NCBI GenBank assembly: GCA_050173015.1
Contig: JBFXLE010000042.1
Span: 1 to 19,880, forward strand
Reading direction: 5' to 3'
DNA from: Calditrichaceae bacterium
GTDB lineage: Bacteria; Calditrichota; Calditrichia; Calditrichales; JBFXGD01
DNA length: 19,880 nt
Below are positions 3,874 to 19,617 of the stretch, one piece after another. The notes under the pieces were generated by a model. The model did no database searches. It had not been told where the DNA came from and saw only the letters and a program-made list of their open reading frames with translations. The translations under genes and the position numbers were made by a program. The number at the start of each line of letters is the position of its first letter. Positions within the stretch are counted from its first letter, which is position 1.

Positions 3874-4506
3874 ATGAATGATTATGTCTATAGTTTTTTT
3901 AGATCGTCCGTACTTCTGTTGATGCTTCTGAATCCATTTCTGGTAATTTTGTATCTGCTTGAAGTTGTCAAAAAACTCAGCTTATCGCAATTTTTAAAAG
4001 TGTTATTTCAGGCGGGATTGATAAGTATTGTCGTGTTTGTCACTTTCGCGGTACTTGGTGATTACGCCTTTAATGTCCTGTTTCAGGCTGAATTCGCTTC
4101 GTTTCAAATCTTCGGTGGTATTATTTTCCTGGTGATCGGTCTTCAGTTTGTTTTTAAAGGCACGGGAGCTATCGATATTCTCAGAGGTGAAGTCAATCAG
4201 GTGGCCGGGGCTCTGGCCATGCCGATTCTGATTGGCCCGGGGACCATCAGCGCCAGTGTCATCATCGGTAAAAGACTTGAACCGTTATACGCGGCCCTGG
4301 CGATTATATTTGCCGTGAGTACCTCATTGATTGTGATGGGATTGCTCAAGGTGATACATGACCGTTTGAAAGCAAAAAACGAGCAACTGATTGAACGATA
4401 TACGGAGGTTGCCGGGCGAATTCTGGCCATCTATGTCGGTACGATCGCGGTTGAAATGATTATGCAGGGAATGCATTTCTGGATTTTAAAAATCAAGGGA
4501 GTATAA
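3874..4506 (+). CDS. marC: MarC family membrane protein
   Basis: LLNPF, SFQIFGGII and LAMPILIGPGTIS motifs; about six TM segments. Confidence 0.88.
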   Translation: MNDYVYSFFRSSVLLLMLLNPFLVILYLLEVVKKLSLSQFLKVLFQAGLISIVVFVTFAVLGDYAFNVLFQAEFASFQIFGGIIFLVIGLQFVFKGTGAIDILRGEVNQVAGALAMPILIGPGTISASVIIGKRLEPLYAALAIIFAVSTSLIVMGLLKVIHDRLKAKNEQLIERYTEVAGRILAIYVGTIAVEMIMQGMHFWILKIKGV

Positions 4507-4595
4507 CGGACGTATTCTTTTTTTTTCTAACCTACCCCGAGTCAGATAAAGATACCTCTTAACTCTTCAACTTCTTACTTCCTACTTTTATTCTT

Positions 4596-4652
4596 CCCAA
4601 GCAGGCAGAAGATTCCTCTTTCCTAAACCCGCCTCTGGCGGGCAGGATGACA
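4596..4652. repeat. Cassette type 1 (cccaagca.gcagaagat...caggatgaca), long allele
   Basis: Second copy at 4972-5004 is 24 bp shorter and lacks the internal CCCGCCTCTGGCGGG palindrome. Confidence 0.8.
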
Positions 4653-4763
4653 TGTATAGAAGCCTGTCGTGAATTACCGGGACGCCCCAACTCTTAACTC
4701 TTATACTCTTAACTCTTAACGTTCTTACTTCCTACTTCTTACTTCCTACTTTTCTTTCTCTCC

Positions 4764-4873
4764 CTACTTTTTGAATGGCCAAAAAGTAGCAAAAAGCCCT
4801 GGCGAATTTTAACTCGTGTATAATTTATCCGTTTTTCAATTTACTCCACTCGAACAGAAAATTCGCCCCGAAG
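4764..4873 (-). repeat. Cassette type 2, double-hairpin element
   Basis: CTACTTTTTG-6nt-CAAAAAGTAG hairpin (4764-4789) plus GGCGAATTTT...AAAATTCGCC arms (4801-4810/4858-4867). Highly similar copy at 12187-12295. Confidence 0.88.
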
Positions 4874-5081
4874 AGTTTCTCAACACAATGGTTGAATCTT
4901 AAACTCTTAACTCTTTTTTCTTTTTTCTTCCAATTCCTACTTCTTACTTCTTACTTCCTACTTTTATTCTTCCCAAGCAAGCAGAAGATCCTTCCAGGAT
5001 GACAAATTTGTGAGTGTAATCGGACGACTCAAATAATATCCATGAATGCCACTCGGCCGCTCCAACTCTTACACTCTTAAC

Positions 5082-5635
5082 TCTTTTTTCTTTTTTCTTT
5101 TATCTTTTTTCTTAAAATTCCTACTTCTTGTCTGAACTATGATTGGCCTGATTTAATGAAAACTCTGATTTCCAATTTCTTAATCATCCGAATCATTTAA
5201 TCATTTTAATCCACCAGAGGCGGACACGCCCCGGTTCAGACCGTTCTTAATCTTTTTTCTTTTTTCTTTTATCTTTTTTCTTAAACTTCTTACTTCTTGT
5301 CTGAACTATGATTGGCCTGATTTAATGAAAACTCTGATTTCCAATTTCTTAATCATCCGAATCATTTAATCATTTTAATCCACCAGAGGCGGACACGTCC
5401 CGGTTCAGACCGTTCTTAATCTTTTTTCTTTTTTCTTTTATCTTTTTTCTTAAAATTCCTACTTCTTGTCTGAACTATGATTGGCCTGATTTAATGAAAA
5501 CTCTGATTTCCAATTTCTTAATCATCCAAATCATTTAATCATTTTAATCCACCAGAGGCGGACACGTCCCGGTTCAGACCGTTCTTAATCTTTTTTCTTT
5601 TTTCTTTTATTTTTTTTCTTAAAATTCCTACTTCC
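5082..5635. repeat. 169-bp tandem repeat, about 3.3 near-identical copies, each holding a 112-bp element with terminal inverted repeats
   Basis: GTCTGAAC starts at 5130, 5299 and 5468 (period 169) and each element ends in GTTCAGAC. Only a few substitutions between copies. Confidence 0.95.
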
Positions 5636-5687
5636 TACTTCTTACTTCCTACTTCCTACTTCCTACTTCCTACTTCCTACTTCTTAC
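5625..5687. repeat. (TTCYTAC)9 heptamer microsatellite
   Basis: Nine consecutive TTCCTAC/TTCTTAC units. Confidence 0.95.
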
Positions 5688-5694
5688 TTCCTCT

Positions 5695-5723
5695 TTGACT
5701 TCCCCCGAATTATTGACTAATCT
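5695..5723 (+). promoter_or_regulatory. Putative sigma70 promoter for the DUF1801 gene
   Basis: TTGACT-N17-TAATCT immediately after array A. Confidence 0.55.
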
Positions 5724-5775
5724 AATCGCGTTACACTCTGGAGCAGTCGCGTATTCACAAATAAAAGGGGGATGT

Positions 5776-6195
5776 ATGGCGGAATTAAAGACAAAAAAGA
5801 ACAAACAAAGTGTCAATGAATTTTTGGACAGAGTTGAGGACCCTAAGAAAAGGACAGATTGTTATAACATTCTTGAGATTATGAAGGAGGCTACCGGGGA
5901 AGAGCCGGCTATGTGGGGTGACAGTATTGTTGGATTTGGAAATTATCATTATAAATACGCGAGCGGGCGCGAAGGCGACTGGTTCTTGACGGGCTTTTCA
6001 CCGCGAAAACAAAATCTGACCCTGTATATCATGTCCGGTTTTGAGAAATATGATGAGTTGATGCAAAAACTTGGGAAGTATAAAACAGGGAAGGCATGTC
6101 TGTATATCAACACACTTGATGATGTGAATACCGATGTCTTAACGGAATTGGTATCCCTCTCCGTCAAATATATCGCCGGAGCTTATAAAAAATAA
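5776..6195 (+). CDS. DUF1801 (YdhG-like) domain protein
   Basis: MAELKTK..ATGEEPAMWGDSIVGFGNYHYKYASGREGDW..GFSPRKQNLTLY..LGKYKTGKACLYI. ATG at 5776 behind AGGGGG. Confidence 0.9.
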   Translation: MAELKTKKNKQSVNEFLDRVEDPKKRTDCYNILEIMKEATGEEPAMWGDSIVGFGNYHYKYASGREGDWFLTGFSPRKQNLTLYIMSGFEKYDELMQKLGKYKTGKACLYINTLDDVNTDVLTELVSLSVKYIAGAYKK

Positions 6196-6223
6196 TCTCT
6201 ATTGGCGGCGCCGCCTGTATGAT

Positions 6224-9188: not shown

Positions 9189-9219
9189 AAAAAAACCCCG
9201 GCCGAAAAGACCGGGGTTT
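9189..9219 (-). terminator. Intrinsic terminator of the cold-shock gene
   Basis: Minus strand AAACCCCGG-loop-CCGGGGTTTTTTT, 17 nt after the stop codon. Confidence 0.88.
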
Positions 9220-9236
9220 GCAAAATTATAGTAAAA

Positions 9237-9437
9237 TTATAATTTTGTTACGTTAATTGCCTGAAGACCTTTTGGGCCCTGACCAATTTCGAATTCAACT
9301 TTGTCGCCTTCTTCAAGGGATCTGTATCCGTTACCTTGAATTGCATTGTAATGCACGAATACATCGTCGCCTTCTTCTCTGCTGATGAAACCATAGCCCT
9401 TAGAGCCATTGAACCATTTTACTGTTCCTGTTTCCAT
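9237..9437 (-). CDS. csp: Cold-shock protein, CspA family
   Basis: [15 protein letters not shown] (RNP1) and DVFVHY (RNP2); 66 aa. Confidence 0.97.
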
Positions 9438-9638
9438 AAAATAATTCCTTACATAAAAAAATAATTGTTGCGTACATCTTTCGTTCTCAGACTGTTAAGG
9501 GCAAAAAAAAATCGCTTTGAATAGTCCATTAGCACCATTCTCAACGAGTTTTCTTTTATTTTACCAGCATCATTTTTTAACAAACCTGCTACCACAAAAC
9601 TAAAAAGTCGAAAAACATGTACATTTAACTGCGAAGAG

Positions 9639-11494: not shown

Positions 11495-11901
11495 GAGACT
11501 TATCCAGGTTTAATGATAGAATAATGAGACTTGTCTAAAAAAATGTTATCTATGTGAAAATAGATATTGATTCTAACGCGTTTGGGTCGTCAGGGAATCA
11601 TTGCTTCCGGAGAAAGCCATTAAAATTCTTATCGGATCAATGACTGTGAATCTTTAAGGTGAATTTATAGAACAGGGAAGTGATTAAAAATTTATTTTGT
11701 TGATGGTACAATTTTACGCAGGATGCAATGGCCGCGGATGTTTACATCCGGTTTCTGTTTTTTTTGCCTGCTTTTAAACACGGATATCCCCGCCCCCACT
11801 CTCAACTCTTACACTCTTAACTCTTTTTTCTTTTGTCTTTTTTCTTTTATCTTAACCTTCCTACTTCCTACTTCCTACTTTTCTTCTCCACTCCGGCCTT
11901 A

Positions 11902-12069
11902 CAAAAAAATCGGTTGAAATTCAGGTGAGCGGAACGGCTGAAATTCTTGCTGTCTGAGACCGCCGCCAGGCGGGCGAGTTTAAGAATTTCAGTGCAGCGA
12001 GCCGTTTAATTTCCCGATTTTTTGGGACAGCCATGATCTTTTGGTTCTTTTCCATCAAGGGAAAAGAAC
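11902..12069 (+). repeat. Long hairpin element, a divergent relative of cassette type 2
   Basis: Nested arms AAAAAATCGG/CCGATTTTTT, GAAATT/AATTTC and CTGAAATTCTT/AAGAATTTCAG around CTGTCTGAG..CGAGTT. Terminal GTTCTTTTCC-6nt-GGAAAAGAAC hairpin. Confidence 0.8.
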
Positions 12070-12186
12070 AAAGAAACATCAGTTCTGATTTCGAAATACA
12101 AACGCTACTAGGATCTCTGAAATCTTTTTTCTTTTTTCTTATTCTTACTACTTCCTACTTTCAACTTCTTACTTTTCTTTCTCTCC

Positions 12187-12295
12187 CTACTTTTTGAATG
12201 GCCAAAAAGTAGCAAAAAGCCCCGGCGAATTTTAACTCGTATAAATTTTTCCGTTTTTCTAATTCTTCCACTCGGACAGAAAATTCGCCCCGAAG
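12187..12295 (-). repeat. Cassette type 2, second copy
   Basis: Arms identical to 4764-4873; differences concentrated in the loop. Confidence 0.88.
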
Positions 12296-12340
12296 AATCC
12301 AAACACTGCTTTGGGATTAACAACCAGATTATCCTGACCA

Positions 12341-12435
12341 GTAGAACAGGGATTCCCGGTGTAATTGTTCGACCCCGACGGGGTCGCCGGATTTTGTGGG
12401 GTCTGTTTTCTACAATAATTTCATCCCTTCGGGAT
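12341..12435. repeat. REP-like composite palindrome
   Basis: GTAGAACAG...CTGTTTTCTAC arms enclosing CGACCCC-GAC-GGGGTCG (12370-12386), followed by the hairpin ATCCC-TTC-GGGAT. Confidence 0.7.
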
Positions 12436-12543
12436 TTGGATTGACGTATGAATTGAATCCCCGAGCTTGATTTAAAATGTTGGATGAATTGGACATGAAA
12501 ACCCCATGCCGGAGGTGTCGCATTTTTGTGGAACTCCAATAAC

Positions 12544-12576
12544 AACCCCCTTAGTCACCCTTTAGCCAAGGGGGAA
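12544..12576. repeat. CCCCCTT/AAGGGGG REP-like palindrome
   Basis: aacccccttagtcaccctttagccaagggggaa. Confidence 0.6.
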
Positions 12577-12648
12577 ACGCCCATTCCCACTCTTTTTTCT
12601 TTTATCTTTTTTCTAAACCTTCTTACTTCCTACTTCTCACTTCTTACT

Positions 12649-12673
12649 TAGGGCACGAGCCTCGTGCCCCTAC
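12649..12673 (-). repeat. GTAG-type REP sequence
   Basis: Minus strand GTAGGGGCACGAG-G-CTCGTGCCCTA: a GTAG foot plus a GC-rich palindrome. Confidence 0.8.
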
Positions 12674-12854
12674 TCATGACTCTTTCCTCTTAACACTCTT
12701 CAACTTCTTACTTCCTACTTCTTACTTCCAACTTTTCTTCTACGCCCCGAAGAAATCCGCAACACAATAGCTGAATCTTAAACTCTTAACTCTTTTTTCT
12801 TTTATCTTTTATCTTTTTTCTTCAACTTCCTACTTCCTCCTTCCTACTTTTCTT

Positions 12855-12883
12855 TTGTGCCAATAGTAAATTTTGTGTACTAT
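12855..12883 (+). promoter_or_regulatory. Putative sigma70 promoter for the beta-CASP/aminopeptidase genes
   Basis: TTGTGC-N17-TACTAT immediately after array B. Confidence 0.45.
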
Positions 12884-12910
12884 TTGATTTCAGTTTTCGG
12901 AAAGGTGCTC

Positions 12911-13858
12911 ATGTTTTCTTATGATAAAGATATATTAATCAACGATATCGGTTTATGGCTTGACGCGGGCAGGGTAAAAGAGTTTGGATTTATATCCCAC
13001 GCGCATGGGGATCATATCGCGCGGCACAAGAAGATCATCTGCACGCCCGTCACCGGAAAAATCATCGAAAAACGTCTAAAATCACCAAATTACACATCGC
13101 TTGAATATCATAAACCACTTAAAATAAATAGCAGTACGATCACGCTTTACCCGGCGGGACATATCCTTGGATCTGCGCAGATCAAAATCGAAAATACTAC
13201 AGGATCGCTCTTATACACCGGTGATTTCAGGCTTCGCCCGGCTAAAACCGTCGAACCGTTTGAATTCGTTAAAACAGATATCCTGATTATGGAAACCACA
13301 TTCGGCCTGCCGCATTATAAGATGCCACCCCGCGAAGAAATAGAGCATTACCTGATTGAACAATGCAAAAAATTACTAAAGGAAGGCCGGATTCCGGTGG
13401 TTTTTTCCTATTCCCTCGGGAAAGGGCAGGAAGTGATGAAAATTCTCACGGAGGCGGGACTGCCCGTGGCGGTTGACTACGGAATATTACGCTTTGTGCC
13501 ATATTACCAGGCCCAGGGGGTTGAATTCGGCCGGTTTGAAAAATTCAGGCGCAGCGAATTCAGGGGGAAAGTGCTACTGCTTCCGACGGGCGCGCGATAT
13601 CAAAGATATCTGAAAGACCTTCGGGATACCCATTCATTTTATATTTCCGGGTGGGGAATTGATCCCTCCGCGCCGAAAAGACTGGGGGTCGATGAAGTTC
13701 TGCCAATCAGTGATCACGCGGATTATGATGAATTGATCGAACTGGTGGAGCGAATCAAACCGGAGGTGGTTTATTGTACTCACGGATTCCCTCAGTTTGT
13801 GGATTCCCTGCGAAACGCCGGATACAATGCCTTCGAATTGGGAAGTGTGTCATCATAA
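12911..13858 (+). CDS. MBL-fold beta-CASP nuclease (ligase-associated DNA-damage-response exonuclease-like)
   Basis: SHAHGDH, AGHILGSA, YTGD, ETTFG, YSLGKGQE, SDHAD and THG motifs. ATG at 12911 behind AAGGTG. Confidence 0.88.
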   Translation: MFSYDKDILINDIGLWLDAGRVKEFGFISHAHGDHIARHKKIICTPVTGKIIEKRLKSPNYTSLEYHKPLKINSSTITLYPAGHILGSAQIKIENTTGSLLYTGDFRLRPAKTVEPFEFVKTDILIMETTFGLPHYKMPPREEIEHYLIEQCKKLLKEGRIPVVFSYSLGKGQEVMKILTEAGLPVAVDYGILRFVPYYQAQGVEFGRFEKFRRSEFRGKVLLLPTGARYQRYLKDLRDTHSFYISGWGIDPSAPKRLGVDEVLPISDHADYDELIELVERIKPEVVYCTHGFPQFVDSLRNAGYNAFELGSVSS

Positions 13859-13976
13859 GGAAAATTAGAAACAAAAATCTTCAATCAACCGTAATCCGGA
13901 TTAGAATTGATTCATAATGGGTTAATTTATTATTGAAAGATTGCCGCGATTCTTTAATAAAATGGAGAAATGAAAG

Positions 13977-16427
13977 ATGAAAGTTCTGAGCCGAGTATTC
14001 ATTTATGTGGTTTTGACGCTCGCTTTTTATCAGACGCAGGCGACAGAAGCATGGCGGGAACATGATTATGATGTGATACACTACAGAATTGAAGTGGGAT
14101 TTGATCATGATAGAGGGATGGTTTCAGGAAGCGCTACCATCGAAATTTCACCACTGAAGGATTATTTCAATTCATTTGATTTGGATGCGCGTAAATTCAC
14201 CGTGAATTCAGTAAGGCTGAACGGCGATAAATCTATTGAATACAATGTAAGTGATGATAAAATCACGGTTATCCTGCCGCGCGATTTCTCTCGGGGTGAA
14301 GCATTTAAAGTGACGGTTGATTATAAGGCAAATCCGGTATCCGGGATGTACTTTTTTAGCCCTGACAAAAAAATGAAGGACCGGCCGAAACAGATTTGGA
14401 CCCAGGGTGAAGGACAAGACAATCATTACTGGTTCCCATGCTATGATTATCCAAATGACAAGGCGACATTTGAAGTGATCGCGGAAGTGGATGGGGGACA
14501 AATCGCGGTTTCCAACGGTAAACTGGTCAGCAGGGATGAGAAAGGGAAGAAGGTCGTTTATCATTATAAAATGGATAAACCCATGTCTTCCTATCTGATC
14601 GATCTGGTGGTTGGTGATTATAAAATGTATGAACAGAGCTGGAACGGCATACCTTTGCAGTACTTTGTGTATCCGGAACATTCTGAGGAAGATGCTCTTC
14701 GTTCTTTCGGAAGAACACCGGTCATGATGCAATTTTTCTCCGACTATACGGGCTTTGAGTATCCCTACTCCAAATACGCGCAGATCCTGATCACCGAATT
14801 CATGTTTGGCGGAATGGAAAATACCACCGCCACTACAATCACCGACAGAACGATGCACACCGAACGCGCCCATCTGGATTTTTCGAGTGACGGACTTGTG
14901 GCGCATGAACTGGCGCATCAATGGTTTGGTGATATGATCACCTGCCGCGAATGGAGCGAAATATGGGTGAATGAAGGGTTTGCCACCTATTTTGATCATC
15001 TTTTTAATGAATTTTATAACGGGAAGGATCAGTTTGGATATGATTTTTATGAAATTCAGAAAGGTGTGATTGATCTGGAACTAAAAAAACCGCAATATCT
15101 AACCGGTAAAGCGCCGTGGAGAATCGCGTATACCAAAGGCGCGTCCGTATTGCACATGACGCGTAACCTGCTTGGTGAAAATCGGTTTCGCGCGGCCATC
15201 AACGAATTTTTAACACAATATGCATATAAGAACGCTGAATCACACGATATGAGAAGGGTAATGGAAGACGCCAGCGGCGTAAATCTGTATGAATTTTTTG
15301 ATCAGTGGGTTTTCGATGGAGGTATTCCCGAATTTGATGTGACAAAAAATTATGATGGTCATTTATCTGAGCTGCAAATCAATGTGAAACAGGTTCAGGA
15401 CAGCGGAATCCGCTCCGTGTTTAAGGTGAAATTATTTATCGGTATCGATGACGGACAAGAGTATTCAGAACATCAGATCGAAATAAACGCCGGAGAACAG
15501 GATTTCGTCATCCCTGTGAAAGCGGAACCGCGAATGGTTATTTTTGATGCCGGACAGGTTATACTTAAAAAAGTGACATTCCGGAAAACTCTTGATGAAT
15601 GGATCTATCAGGCGCGTAACGCGCACCGGATAGCAGACAGACTTCATGCCATAGAGATACTTCCTGAATTGGAGACAGAATCGAATCACGGCAAAATCGC
15701 ATCGGCATTACTCGAGCTGGCCGCCGGTGATAAATTTTATGGAATTCGCGCGGATGCTCTGAAAGCCTTCACCGGATTGCAGTATTTGACGGGGGATAAA
15801 AATGTCGGTTTTGCGGACACGCTGAGATCGCTTTTAGTGACGGAATATAAATCAACTGTAAGGGTCAATCTTTTACATGCTCTGGCAAAATTCAAAGTTC
15901 CTGCCGATGAAGTGGTGTTCGATCAATACTTTAAATCGGATATGAGTTACGACGTGAGAATAAGCGCGCTTCAAGCATTACTTGAAGTATTTCCGGCTAA
16001 GGGGGAAAAATATCTGAAAGAAGCAATGCAGATGGACTCCTGGGATGAGAAAATCCGGGAAACCGCTTTTGATTCGCTGTTGATACTGCCTGATAAAAAA
16101 GCATTCGAGATGGCAAAGTCGTATACAAAATATGGAAATGACCAGAAATTACGGGCCGCGGCTGTTAAAGTTATGGGAGAATTGGCGGCAAAGAATTATG
16201 ATCCGGCAATTAAAGTATTGCTTGATGTTGTAAAAGAGGGTGGAGAGGATTACCGGTACCGGCCTGTTAGCCTTGCCATTGCCAAAGTGGGAGAATTTGC
16301 TCCGGAGAGCGCCCGCCCGCTGCTGTTAGAAATTGTTAAAAAAAACGGAAATAAATACATGACGGCATCCGCGGAACGCGCCTTGGCAAAGTTGACAGAA
16401 AATAACACGCAAGCACAGGAAGAATAA
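13977..16427 (+). CDS. Secreted M1-family aminopeptidase (PepN-like) with C-terminal HEAT-like repeats
   Basis: Signal peptide, GGMEN, HELAH...NEGFA zinc motif, YTKG, and a helical repeat C-terminus. Confidence 0.93.
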   Translation: MKVLSRVFIYVVLTLAFYQTQATEAWREHDYDVIHYRIEVGFDHDRGMVSGSATIEISPLKDYFNSFDLDARKFTVNSVRLNGDKSIEYNVSDDKITVILPRDFSRGEAFKVTVDYKANPVSGMYFFSPDKKMKDRPKQIWTQGEGQDNHYWFPCYDYPNDKATFEVIAEVDGGQIAVSNGKLVSRDEKGKKVVYHYKMDKPMSSYLIDLVVGDYKMYEQSWNGIPLQYFVYPEHSEEDALRSFGRTPVMMQFFSDYTGFEYPYSKYAQILITEFMFGGMENTTATTITDRTMHTERAHLDFSSDGLVAHELAHQWFGDMITCREWSEIWVNEGFATYFDHLFNEFYNGKDQFGYDFYEIQKGVIDLELKKPQYLTGKAPWRIAYTKGASVLHMTRNLLGENRFRAAINEFLTQYAYKNAESHDMRRVMEDASGVNLYEFFDQWVFDGGIPEFDVTKNYDGHLSELQINVKQVQDSGIRSVFKVKLFIGIDDGQEYSEHQIEINAGEQDFVIPVKAEPRMVIFDAGQVILKKVTFRKTLDEWIYQARNAHRIADRLHAIEILPELETESNHGKIASALLELAAGDKFYGIRADALKAFTGLQYLTGDKNVGFADTLRSLLVTEYKSTVRVNLLHALAKFKVPADEVVFDQYFKSDMSYDVRISALQALLEVFPAKGEKYLKEAMQMDSWDEKIRETAFDSLLILPDKKAFEMAKSYTKYGNDQKLRAAAVKVMGELAAKNYDPAIKVLLDVVKEGGEDYRYRPVSLAIAKVGEFAPESARPLLLEIVKKNGNKYMTASAERALAKLTENNTQAQEE

Positions 16428-18277: not shown

Positions 18278-19617
18278 TGGTTCAGTCAAAATTGGAATTT
18301 TAAAAGGATTTAGTGCTATGATTTAAACCTTCTTATAAGGAGTAATATCATGGCAAGAAAATCAGTTAGACACTTTACCCCGGAACAGAAATTAAAGATC
18401 ATAAAAGAGGGTTTTTTGCCCAATGTTCGGGTTGCAGATCTATGCCGTTATTACGATATTTATCCCACAGATTATTATCGTTGGAAAAAATTAGCGGAGT
18501 CTTCAATGATTGATGGATTAAAACCCAAAAAGAAGAAACAAAAGCCATTAAGTAAACGCGGGCAGGAATTACAACAAGAGAATGAACGCCTTCAGGCATT
18601 AATTATCCAGCTAACCAAAGAACATTTAGAGCTTAAAAAAAAGTACAGGAATCGGAATAAAGAACCGATTTTGCAGATTCGAAAAAAAAGATATTCTGGA
18701 TTTTATGAAACATATCAGACACTAACCGGAACGGATAAAAAGATCATTCTCAAACACCTGGGTTTAAGGCCCTCAACGTATTACAAGTGGCTACATCGTT
18801 ACGAGCACAAAAGTTTACACGATCAAAAGCCGGTAGGCATGAATCCTTATCGTTTGTTAGACTGGGAAAAGGAAGCGATACATGATTTTTACATAGATAA
18901 TCAGGAAAACGGTTACCGGCGAATCACATATATGATGATAGATCAGTACATCGTATCTACAAGCCCCCTCAACAGTTTACAGGTATTTAAAAAGTGAAGG
19001 ATTACTCATGCGATGGGCCCCGCCTCGCATACTTGGCCCCAAGCCAGCGCTGCCCACCGCACCCAATCAGAAGTGGCATACGGACTTAATGATTCTGGCA
19101 ATTGACGGTAATAATTATTACTATCAGGGTATCATAGATGCTTACAGTCGCTGAATTATCGCCTGGGATATTTATGCAGAAGGTAGCGCTTTAAATACCA
19201 GCCTGCTTCTGCAGGATGCCTATGATAAATCACCCGAAGGAATAAATCCTGTGGTTATTGCGGATAACGGTCCTGAGTTTACCGGCAAAGAATTTCGAGA
19301 AATTATAAAAGTTCATCAAGGCAAAGATGTGCGTATTGCTGCCTATCATCCGCAGAGTAACGGTATAGAAGAACGATTCCATCGCACACTGAGTGAGAGA
19401 AGAAGGATTAAGCCGCTATCATAACCTGATAGAAGCAAAAGAAAAAGTCGGTAAATGGATTAAATATTATAACAAATACAGACTACATTCATCCATTCAG
19501 TATATGCCGCCGAAAGTTTGGCATTTTGGTGACCCGGGCGTGAAAGCTGATGAAAGAAGACAGAAGTTAGAACAGGCAAAACAAGAACGTCATATAGAGA
19601 ATAAAGTGGTGGTGTAA
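18278..19617 (+). mobile_element. IS3-family insertion sequence, degenerate; right end not identified
   Basis: Putative left end TGGTTCAGTCAAAATTGGAAT, OrfA HTH, slippery A8G run at 18635-18643, and DDE integrase-like core. Confidence 0.85.
18350..19617 (+). pseudogene. IS3-family transposase pseudogene
   Basis: Stitched frames give ..PNQKWHTD..IDAYSR*IIAW..IADNGPEF..PQSNGIEERFHRTL/REE..YNKYRLHSSI. Lesions: frameshift at the C5 run 18964-18968, TGA at 19152-19154, and a 4-bp duplication at 19390-19397. Confidence 0.88.

Follow-up and report, generated by a model that had tools for sequence, protein, structure and literature searches.

We analyzed a stretch of 19,880 nucleotides (the window), which is one whole 19.9-kb contig (JBFXLE010000042.1) from the genome of a Calditrichaceae bacterium (assembly GCA_050173015.1; 4.34 Mb in 54 contigs; G000 below). 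A search with a glycerol-3-phosphate-dehydrogenase-like protein gave matches of 65 to 70% in metagenome-assembled genomes of Calditrichia, KSB1, and Balneolales. Between the genes for a MarC family membrane protein and a DUF1801 protein lies 1.1 kb of repetitive DNA, which we call array A. A preliminary description of this DNA, made from the sequence alone, had proposed a modular layout in which seven pyrimidine-rich tracts alternate strictly with six cassettes in the order 1, 2, 1', 3, 3, 3. Our segmentation of positions 4551 to 5694 agrees with the layout, the alternation, and the order (Table 1), except that cassettes 1 and 1' are alike over their first third only. The tracts (45, 79, 75, 66, 55, 55, and 113 nt) hold just 2 G nucleotides in 488 nt, one in each of the first two tracts and none in the others, which is far beyond chance in a genome with about 21% G. 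The cassettes (90, 132, 92, 114, 114, and 114 nt) have 18 to 24 G nucleotides each, or 120 in 656 nt. GC skew across the region is -0.32 to -0.37, all six cassettes are in the same orientation, and none of them holds a real open reading frame (ORF).

Within the tracts, Tandem Repeats Finder identified blocks of three heptamers, AACTCTT, TCTTTTT, and TTCYTAC, which we will refer to as A, B, and C heptads. Without exception, the tracts of array A have A and/or B heptads at the 5' end and C heptads at the 3' end.

Table 1. Arrays A and B and the genes that flank array A, with positions in the window.
Feature	Position	Strand	Description
Tract T1	4551..4595	+	Short AACTCTT-type head, then TTCYTAC heptads; 45 nt, 1 G
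Cassette 1	4596..4685	+	Core like a repetitive extragenic palindrome (REP); nested small GC hairpin CCGCCTCTGGCGG in hairpin loop, then GGATGAC
Tract T2	4686..4764	+	AACTCTT-type head, after REP-like core, then TTCYTAC heptads
Cassette 2	4765..4896	+	9-bp hairpin and long-range 10-14-bp stem; 33 genome copies
Tract T3	4897..4971	+	Short AACTCTT block, TCTTTTT block, then TTCYTAC heptads
Cassette 1'	4972..5063	+	REP-like core; hairpin ATCCTTCCAGGAT, then GAC
Tract T4	5064..5129	+	AACTCTT block, TCTTTTT block, then TTCYTAC heptads
Cassette 3, copy 1	5130..5243	+	Like a miniature inverted-repeat transposable element (MITE); 8-9-bp terminal inverted repeat GTCTGAAC...GTTCAGAC
Tract T5	5244..5298	+	TCTTTTT block, then TTCYTAC heptads; 0 G
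Cassette 3, copy 2	5299..5412	+	99% identical to copy 1
Tract T6	5413..5467	+	TCTTTTT block, then TTCYTAC heptads
Cassette 3, copy 3	5468..5581	+	98% identical to copy 1
Tract T7	5582..5694	+	TCTTTTT block, then about 10 TTCYTAC heptads; terminal; 3' junction conserved in the same-genus genome (G001)
MarC family membrane protein gene	3874..4506	+	Upstream flank of array A; protein family match
DUF1801 gene	5776..6195	+	Downstream flank of array A; start 81 nt past last heptad tract
Array B (second array)	11792..12856	+	Five tracts; same strand as array A

The cassettes had been described as palindromic, which overstates the case. Cassette 3 (z = -4.36; none of 200 shuffles folded as well) and cassette 2 (z = -2.04; 7 of 200 shuffles) fold better than shuffled sequences. 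The same is not true of cassettes 1 and 1' (z = -0.72 and +0.72), which have short local hairpins only. A search of positions 4400 to 5800 gave no inverted repeats of at least 14 nt. The loop of cassette 1 carries a nested GC hairpin of 13 to 14 nt, and the hairpin of cassette 1' is a 16-mer that occurs 25 times in the genome. Each of these two cassettes carries one member of a broader set of REP-like hairpins, in which ATCCY-loop-RGGAT precedes GAC or GAT; of 84 perfect copies, 55 lie in arrays, 42 of them in the same orientation as the tract and 13 in the opposite orientation. Subfamilies of these hairpins differ by paired changes in the stem (ATCCT/AGGAT, ATCCC/GGGAT, and ACCCC/GGGGT). Cassette 2 is a mosaic, with a constant first 110 nt followed by one of at least three alternative 3' modules, and its stem columns are 99.4% conserved versus 88.4% elsewhere in the cassette. 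The stems of cassettes 2 and 3 are almost invariant, so covariation gives no compensatory evidence for or against these structures. The genome has 93 cassette-3-like 5' ends, 37 of which have a 3' end at 90 to 130 nt, and we identified no transposase-bearing full-length parent among the 93. Cassette 3 also has tract-free relatives, at 70 to 75% identity, which we read as older. Inside the two arrays of the window, the covariance models of Rfam 15 gave no match at E ≤ 1, and promoter-like and terminator-like sites in the arrays were not above the level of shuffled sequences.

The tracts recur across the genome. A seed-and-extend tract finder located 243 tracts in the genome (140 on the plus strand and 103 on the minus strand), grouped into 111 arrays, of which 50 have a single tract and 61 have two to nine. 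Together the arrays cover 34,880 nt, or 0.80% of the genome, and by crude ORF-based gene calls they make up about 6% of its noncoding DNA; only 6 of the 111 overlap predicted genes by more than 30%. Of the 111 arrays, 44 lie within 500 nt of a contig end, which indicates that the repeats break short-read assembly. The A/B-before-C order is kept in 253 of 256 seed clusters genome-wide, and the exceptions are CBC, BCB, and ACBC. Solo B-C and A-C tracts with unique flanks are also present, and there are only three inverted pairs of tracts. We saw no replication-strand bias when we compared tract strand with regional GC skew (Fisher's exact test, P = 0.15), which mostly tracks gene strand (r = 0.87).

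In keeping with the modular layout, the cassettes are strongly tied to the tracts. A C tract lies directly 5' of 30 of 33 copies of cassette 2, 22 of 28 copies of cassette 3, 8 of 10 copies of cassette 1', and 7 of 8 copies of the small GC hairpin, as compared to 163 of 20,000 random intergenic positions (0.8%). The second array in the window, array B, is also modular: its five tracts set apart a 230-nt core, a copy of cassette 2 with other modules, a hairpin module of 44 nt, a GC hairpin of 23 nt, and a 3' fragment of cassette 2. A 145-aa ORF on the minus strand (12108 to 12545) lies wholly inside these repeat modules; a codon-usage model did not call it, and it is very likely spurious. The tracts are spread unevenly over the contigs. 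The seed scan found none on C2 (286 kb), C19, C21, C22, C25 to C28, or C31, and small contigs are tract-dense; this may reflect assembly, genomic islands, or binning. One array on C27, with a 460-bp period and pieces of A block, was missed by the seeds.

The head of a tract depends on the cassette that precedes it. We clustered 132 inter-tract segments (median 114.5 nt, from several families) by their ends. The 3' ends of cassette 2 lead into B or A+B heads in 15 of 15 cases. The ends of cassette 3 lead into B heads in 9 of 14, 4 of 4, and 3 of 3 cases, and never into a pure A head, and a CCCCCTT...AAGGGGG hairpin module is followed by a B head in 6 of 6 cases. REP-like core ends, in turn, lead into A heads (6 of 7, 3 of 3, and 2 of 2). 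C heptads precede all three main core families (38 of 41, 22 of 27, and 18 of 18) and are the only part of the tract that is common to all junctions. The repeating unit is therefore a core plus its own A or B tail, placed between C heptads. The tract had been proposed to act as a uniform recurring junction or landing pad; because its head varies with the preceding cassette, a single landing pad is, in simple form, ruled out.

Several observations bear on how arrays change. Within array A, a period of 169 bp is repeated 3.3 times at positions 5075 to 5634 (97% matches by Tandem Repeats Finder), and a 215-nt segment is present in three copies that are 98% identical. Thus, cassettes 4 to 6 of this array are a local tandem duplication of a 169-bp unit. 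Elsewhere, arrays are built of two modules repeated in tandem, at periods of about 441 and 475 nt. Identity is higher between copies from one array than between copies from separate arrays, both for cassette 3 (median identity 0.986 versus 0.781) and for REP-like cores (0.895 versus 0.62), although same-array pairs are not independent of each other. In addition, a multi-module block of 284 nt is 98 to 99% identical between arrays on contigs C16 and C4, beside different genes, which points to a recent transfer of the block. Most other long matches between arrays involve contig ends and may represent one locus that was assembled twice.

We then compared the arrays to those of a second genome from the same genus (G001), which is 94% complete and whose genes are 80 to 87% identical in DNA. 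It has 184 three-heptad matches, versus 284 in G000. We inspected six orthologous sites, namely those of arrays A and B and four others, of which two are on C4 and one each on C1 and C5. Tract arrays occupy all six sites in both species, their content differs at all six, and there is no pair of a filled and an empty site among them. At the site of array A, G001 retains cassette 1 with its nested hairpin, an A-C tract, and the terminal B-C tract, whose 3' junction matches at every base over about 25 nt. In place of cassette 2, cassette 1', and the three units of cassette 3, it has one small hairpin at this site. End tracts also align at the second C4 site (both ends) and at the C1 site (right end), with different numbers of heptads. 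Array B and G001 contig C159 have the first tract, the first core, and the second tract in common. Past the second tract, G001 has unrelated AT-rich DNA and an ORF with a Walker-A-like motif (read by eye), and the gene downstream of array B sits on another G001 contig. The first core of array B (11889 to 12118) differs from that on C159 by a 49-nt segment with a CCGCCGCCAGGCGG hairpin, and this same segment, hairpin included, recurs in arrays on C27 and C34.

These comparisons bear on the earlier idea that arrays are assembled unit by unit from one end. Differences between orthologous loci do fall at module boundaries, but they are in the interior and we saw no polarized gain: end tracts are conserved between the species, interiors differ, and the last three cassettes of array A arose by local duplication. 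Overall, the array sites are old and common to both species, while their interiors turn over fast.

More broadly, at least three tandem TTCYTAC heptads are found in 17 of 86 genomes of the phylum, and only this genus is rich in them. In the five more distant genomes whose tracts we read, the tracts are plain, lack A or B blocks and cores, and sit at gene ends, sometimes as inverted pairs between convergent genes. Such pairs have the form (GTARGAA)n, a spacer of 45 to 150 nt, and (TTCYTAC)n, as at G004 C1:244,2xx-244,457, on G004 C79, and on G048 C293; both genes thus have a purine-sense tract after them, and a long hairpin could form from the two tracts. The A block, when up to 2 mismatches are allowed, has 89 matches in G000 and 32 in G001. 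Elsewhere it has single 2-mismatch matches in 2 of 84 other genomes, which is the level of the reversed control. Its 21-nt core is identical in the listed copies of both species (47 listed for G000 and 16 for G001), which suggests ongoing spread, homogenization, or selection. Among JGI metagenome contigs, we found no exact matches for the right junction of array A or for the A block. Seventeen viral contigs hold (TTCYTAC)4, again as plain heptads without A or B blocks or cores. Thus, the composite of tract and core is restricted to the genus, and plain heptads are more widespread. A reversed control, (CATYCTT)3, had 110 matches in G061 (same class, family f8) and 8 in G063, so other members of the phylum carry a different G-free heptad repeat family.

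The tracts are also anchored to stop codons. Where the C end of an array faces a convergent gene, it falls between -39 and +5 nt of that gene's stop codon in 40 of 52 cases; for the A/B end, the figure is just 3 of 32 (Fisher's exact test, P = 8e-10). In 18 of 39 such genes, the stop codon is itself the TAR or TGA of a heptad, as read on the purine strand, which gives protein tails such as EVGSKK before the stop. Where the downstream gene is co-directional, as for both arrays of the window, 29 of 37 predicted starts are 36 to 165 nt past the tract. Of the two orientations, the purine-sense one is favored by 30 to 11 in co-directional spacers (binomial P = 0.004). Reading the heptads directly, we find stops in all three frames on the purine strand and none on the pyrimidine strand; selection could therefore explain the orientation of the tracts, but not their abutment on stop codons.

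We think that array A is probably one array of a genus-specific mosaic intergenic repeat family that is shaped by slippage, unequal crossing-over, and ectopic recombination. The preliminary description had offered a recombination-shuffled composite repeat as a fallback, and this fits best. The building blocks are a compound heptad microsatellite, made of the three related G-free heptads, and a few hairpin-bearing cores, some of them REP-like and one MITE-like. A core and its A or B tail move together, and C heptads lie on either side. This view builds on what we observe directly: how the arrays are built, that their family extends across the genome, that tails go with particular cores, that units are amplified locally, and that sites are conserved while their content changes. 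As to mechanism, the number of heptads would change by replication slippage, and whole units of core and tract would duplicate in tandem by unequal crossing-over between tracts. Blocks may be exchanged or copied between arrays by ectopic recombination or gene conversion, with the near-identical tracts providing the homology. Array A cannot code for a protein, and nothing in it points to adaptive acquisition.

Several points weigh against this explanation. First, the core of the A block is identical across species whose genes differ by 13 to 20%, and passive junk would have drifted. Second, recombination alone leaves unexplained why TTCYTAC recurs in 17 of the 86 genomes and why the C end abuts convergent stop codons (40 of 52). 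The conservation of modules across species and the anchoring at stop codons thus stand outside the explanation. Third, the same-array identities come from mutually dependent pairs, some arrays that we count as different may belong to a single locus, and short-read assembly makes copy numbers uncertain. Finally, the gene calls behind the distance and noncoding statistics come from our own crude ORF model.

An alternative that we consider unlikely, if far from fanciful, is that the cassettes are non-autonomous mobile elements of the REP, REPIN (REP doublet forming a hairpin), or MITE type that were inserted in trans, specifically into TTCYTAC heptads. The tract would then be a true target site, and arrays would grow by repeated insertion by a trans-acting transposase, either a REP-associated tyrosine transposase (RAYT) or other Y1 enzyme, an IS110-type enzyme, or another. 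The terminal inverted repeats of cassette 3 and its older tract-free relatives are consistent with this, as are the REP-like hairpins that precede GATGAC and lie mostly in arrays (55 of 84), with paired changes in their stems. So are the small GC hairpin nested in the loop of cassette 1 and the A block that is identical across species. A gene for a Y1 (IS200-like) transposase of 154 aa on contig C5 (165006 to 165470) also points in this direction. In C5 164,600 to 166,300, a periodic cluster of ATCCCGAAGGGATGAC and ACCCCGAAGGGGTGAC hairpin repeats flanks this gene on both sides; clusters of ATCCCGAAGGGATGAC in this position are the signature of a REP-associated transposase. The ATCCCGAAGGGATGAC repeat is also found inside array modules (29 to 36 nt, 89 to 97% identity), including at 12415 to 12445 of the window on the minus strand. 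The genome has three other Y1 genes (on C4, C22, and C10), each flanked by its own, unrelated family of repeats. In addition, an IS110-family element (C45, about 12,660 to 14,250) lies within the REP-like hairpin of a cassette-1 copy in a tract array. Its transposase ORF (375 aa; 13036 to 14160, minus strand) is the only match to PF01548 in the genome. IS110-type enzymes prefer palindromes such as the cassette-1 hairpin.

However, G001 is rich in arrays, and its best match to the C5 Y1 transposase is just 34% identical (the gene may be unassembled in this 94%-complete genome). The closest relatives of this transposase (58 to 67% identity) are mostly in tract-free genomes, and PF01797 is present in 37 of 41 relatives, with or without tracts. 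Genes that co-occur with the tracts had been envisaged, but none of PF01797, CsrA (77 of 86 genomes), and the C5 Y1 transposase tracks the arrays. No target-site duplications were seen, and no filled and empty pair turned up among the six orthologous sites. The hairpins are mostly co-oriented with the tract (42 versus 13), unlike REPIN pairs. Also, adjacent copies are the most similar, which argues for duplication rather than repeated insertion.

A longer shot is that the TTCYTAC tract is a sequence-specific docking site exactly at stop codons and that modules with A or B tails "home" into any tract. The tract may be recognized by a protein, or it may be a homology arm for tract-templated gene conversion. 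If this is true, it would be a landing-pad system for noncoding mobile modules, either without a transposase or with a new recombinase. It would also explain why identical modules are found in two species whose genes differ by 13 to 20%, why tracts and cassettes alternate strictly, and why the heptad occurs in 17 of 86 genomes.

We are more doubtful that the tracts, or whole arrays, act at the RNA level, with (GUARGAA)n directly after the stop codon of the upstream gene as an element of the 3' untranslated region. Such an element might bind a protein that recognizes GGA (CsrA, for example), safeguard termination of translation with stops in three frames, or affect mRNA stability or transcript termination, and the hairpin modules would be stabilizers. 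The position of the C end at convergent stops (40 of 52, versus 3 of 32 for the A/B end), the heptads that supply stop codons (18 of 39), and the purine-sense preference in co-directional spacers (30 to 11) all fit this proposal, and the solo TTCYTAC tracts of distant genomes sit at gene ends as well. The stems of cassette 2 are more conserved than its loops, and in Xanthomonas, according to the available text of PMC4692102, GGGAATC heptamers lie 0 to 50 nt past the stop on the coding strand. Yet both arrays of the window are the other way around, so that their pyrimidine strand runs in the direction of the next gene, and the downstream gene is co-directional in 37 of 89 arrays. The window arrays have no Rfam match, terminator-like sites are at the level of shuffles, CsrA does not track the tracts, and array content is not conserved between species. 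Purifying selection alone could also give the orientation bias at gene ends.

It is highly improbable that the interior of array A is an artifact, with repeats that were collapsed, expanded, or misjoined in a short-read metagenome assembly. Many arrays are near contig ends (44 of 111 within 500 nt), the copy number of the 169-bp unit comes from this assembly alone, and the confirmation from G001 extends only to the flanks, cassette 1, and the terminal tract. But array A is inside its contig, between unique flanks, and the same architecture is found at many loci and in the independently assembled genome from the same genus. A less telling point is that sequencing runs from three studies hold 59 to 81% of the 31-mers sampled from window positions 3900 to 6200; half of this region is array, the best run may be the source sample, and repeat words can be from other loci. 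None of the runs listed for these positions was an RNA run.

The likening of array A to a CRISPR (clustered regularly interspaced short palindromic repeats) or integron array, as a trap, decoy, or memory with the tract as recombination site, deserves virtually no credence. Only the regular alternation and the IS110-family element that landed in one cassette elsewhere speak for it, whereas the cassettes are a few families with tens of copies genome-wide, three of the six in array A are a tandem duplicate, change is unpolarized with conserved ends and differing interiors, the junction is not uniform, and 111 arrays are scattered across the genome instead of being at one or a few loci. We rejected a CRISPR array because the "spacers" are repeated genome-wide (cassette 2 33 times and cassette 3 28 times), the junction is variable, there is no polarity, and neither a cas-like gene nor an integrase was found among the 11 ORFs scanned in the window. 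An integron array was rejected because the cassettes have no real ORF and the contig has no match to PF00589, whose matches in the genome are on C19, C10, C16, C9, and C5.

The preliminary description knew of no account of this architecture, but the neisserial intergenic mosaic elements (NIME) share the layout. In NIME arrays, as far as the available text describes them, 20-bp dRS3 junctions flank over 100 families of 50- to 150-bp repeat sequence (RS) elements, with a wave of G+C content, and syntenic arrays vary in the number and length of repeats and were proposed to be substrates for recombination (Bentley et al. 2007, PMC1797815). Also, a phage-encoded transposase or recombinase integrates into dRS3 (PMC1797815). 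On this description, both systems have a recurring junction that alternates with many 50- to 150-bp repeat families, are noncoding, vary between syntenic loci, and show the G+C wave between junction and cassette. In Neisseria, an IS110-type enzyme can integrate into the repeats; here, an IS110-family element lies in a cassette hairpin. The junction differs, however. Here it is a polar G-free compound heptad microsatellite of 45 to 113 nt and not a 20-bp palindrome (ATTCCCN8GGGAAT), which has no match in the window at up to 1 mismatch. Its head depends on the preceding cassette, all modules are co-oriented, and the organisms and sequences are unrelated to those described for Neisseria. By analogy, NIME is the nearest published architecture; our array resembles it but is not a member.

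The arrays also resemble the mosaics of REPs in Escherichia coli and Pseudomonas, the bacterial interspersed mosaic elements (BIME), in that hairpin repeats and other motifs form amplifiable intergenic mosaics (PMC2817692, as far as its available text goes). The Y1 gene flanked by its own REP clusters, with the REP also inside array modules, recalls REP/RAYT systems. But REPs alternate in orientation in BIMEs, while the hairpins here are mostly co-oriented (42 versus 13). Nor are heptad tracts part of BIMEs as described there, and the Y1 transposase here does not covary with the arrays.

Heptameric repeats of a related kind are the short tandemly repeated repetitive (STRR) sequences of cyanobacteria. 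The tracts by themselves have a parallel in the heptamers of Xanthomonas and Nostoc. In the available portion of Rehm et al. 2015 (PMC4692102), the GGGAATC heptamers of Xanthomonas are on the coding strand, either across the stop codon or 0 to 50 nt away from it. As in our genus, the Xanthomonas and Nostoc heptamers are tandem 7-nt repeats that are intergenic, nearer to the upstream ORF, and mostly at or overlapping its stop; the G-containing strand is the coding strand, and close relatives keep the site but differ in the length and sequence of the repeat (PMC4692102). Unlike those heptamers, our units (on the purine strand GTARGAA, AAAAAGA, and AAGAGTT) contain no runs of GGG, and we do not expect them to form G-quadruplexes. 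Here there are also three ordered types of heptad, and the tracts are interleaved with hairpin cassettes, which the available portion of PMC4692102 does not mention.

BOX elements of Streptococcus pneumoniae, boxA-(boxB)n-boxC, were judged to be parasitic, with a slow turnover of insertions (Croucher et al. 2011, PMC3049150, available text). They share with our arrays a modular build, an intergenic position, restriction to a lineage, and internal modules that vary in number. BOX, as described, is a single element with fixed end modules, whereas here many types of core share a microsatellite linker, in arrays of up to 9 tracts. A 2008 study of Nostoc is said to have described very small hairpin elements nested in other repeats and in heptamer tracts. 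The nesting is like that of the 13- to 14-nt GC hairpin in the loop of cassette 1, but the phylum and the sequences differ. In the literature on intergenic repeats of Caldithrix or Calditrichota and on heptameric or small dispersed repeats, we found no description of this family; the genome paper for Caldithrix abyssi describes, in its available text, only an 18-nt palindromic motif (PMC5317091).

The genes around the arrays are ordinary. Among the 11 ORFs scanned in the window are genes for MarC, DUF1801, DinB_2, a hydrolase, a MutS-related protein, a protein with a metallo-beta-lactamase fold, and an M1 peptidase. The sole mobile-element gene among them is a 215-aa ORF on the plus strand (18350 to 18997), about 12.6 kb from array A. 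It has the helix-turn-helix domain of IS3-type transposases (PF01527), the catalytic domain is absent in the same frame, and it is probably a fragment of an insertion sequence (IS) or the first ORF of a frameshifted element. Separately, positions 9189 to 9597 on the minus strand match the cspA thermoregulator (RF01766) with 63 bits, below the gathering score of 78, and E = 4.8e-14; no other Rfam match in the window is notable. This match overlaps a predicted 67-aa ORF (9237 to 9437, minus strand), which may be a gene for a cold-shock protein with a long structured leader.

Array A is real and striking, and it is essentially a known kind of object: a new lineage-specific mosaic intergenic repeat. 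In practice, such arrays break short-read assemblies (44 of 111 are at contig ends) and create spurious ORFs, such as the one at 12108 to 12545. This genus adds a well-resolved case from a poorly studied, Calditrichota-like phylum to the few mosaic systems, namely NIME, BIME, and BOX. In addition, it brings together stop-codon-anchored heptameric microsatellites and REP- or MITE-like hairpin modules, which most descriptions treat separately. Polar heptad tracts that abut stop codons are now seen in Xanthomonas, in Nostoc, and in this genus, which makes them a recurring trait of bacterial heptamer repeats, and the genus offers about 40 natural cases of tracts in this position.

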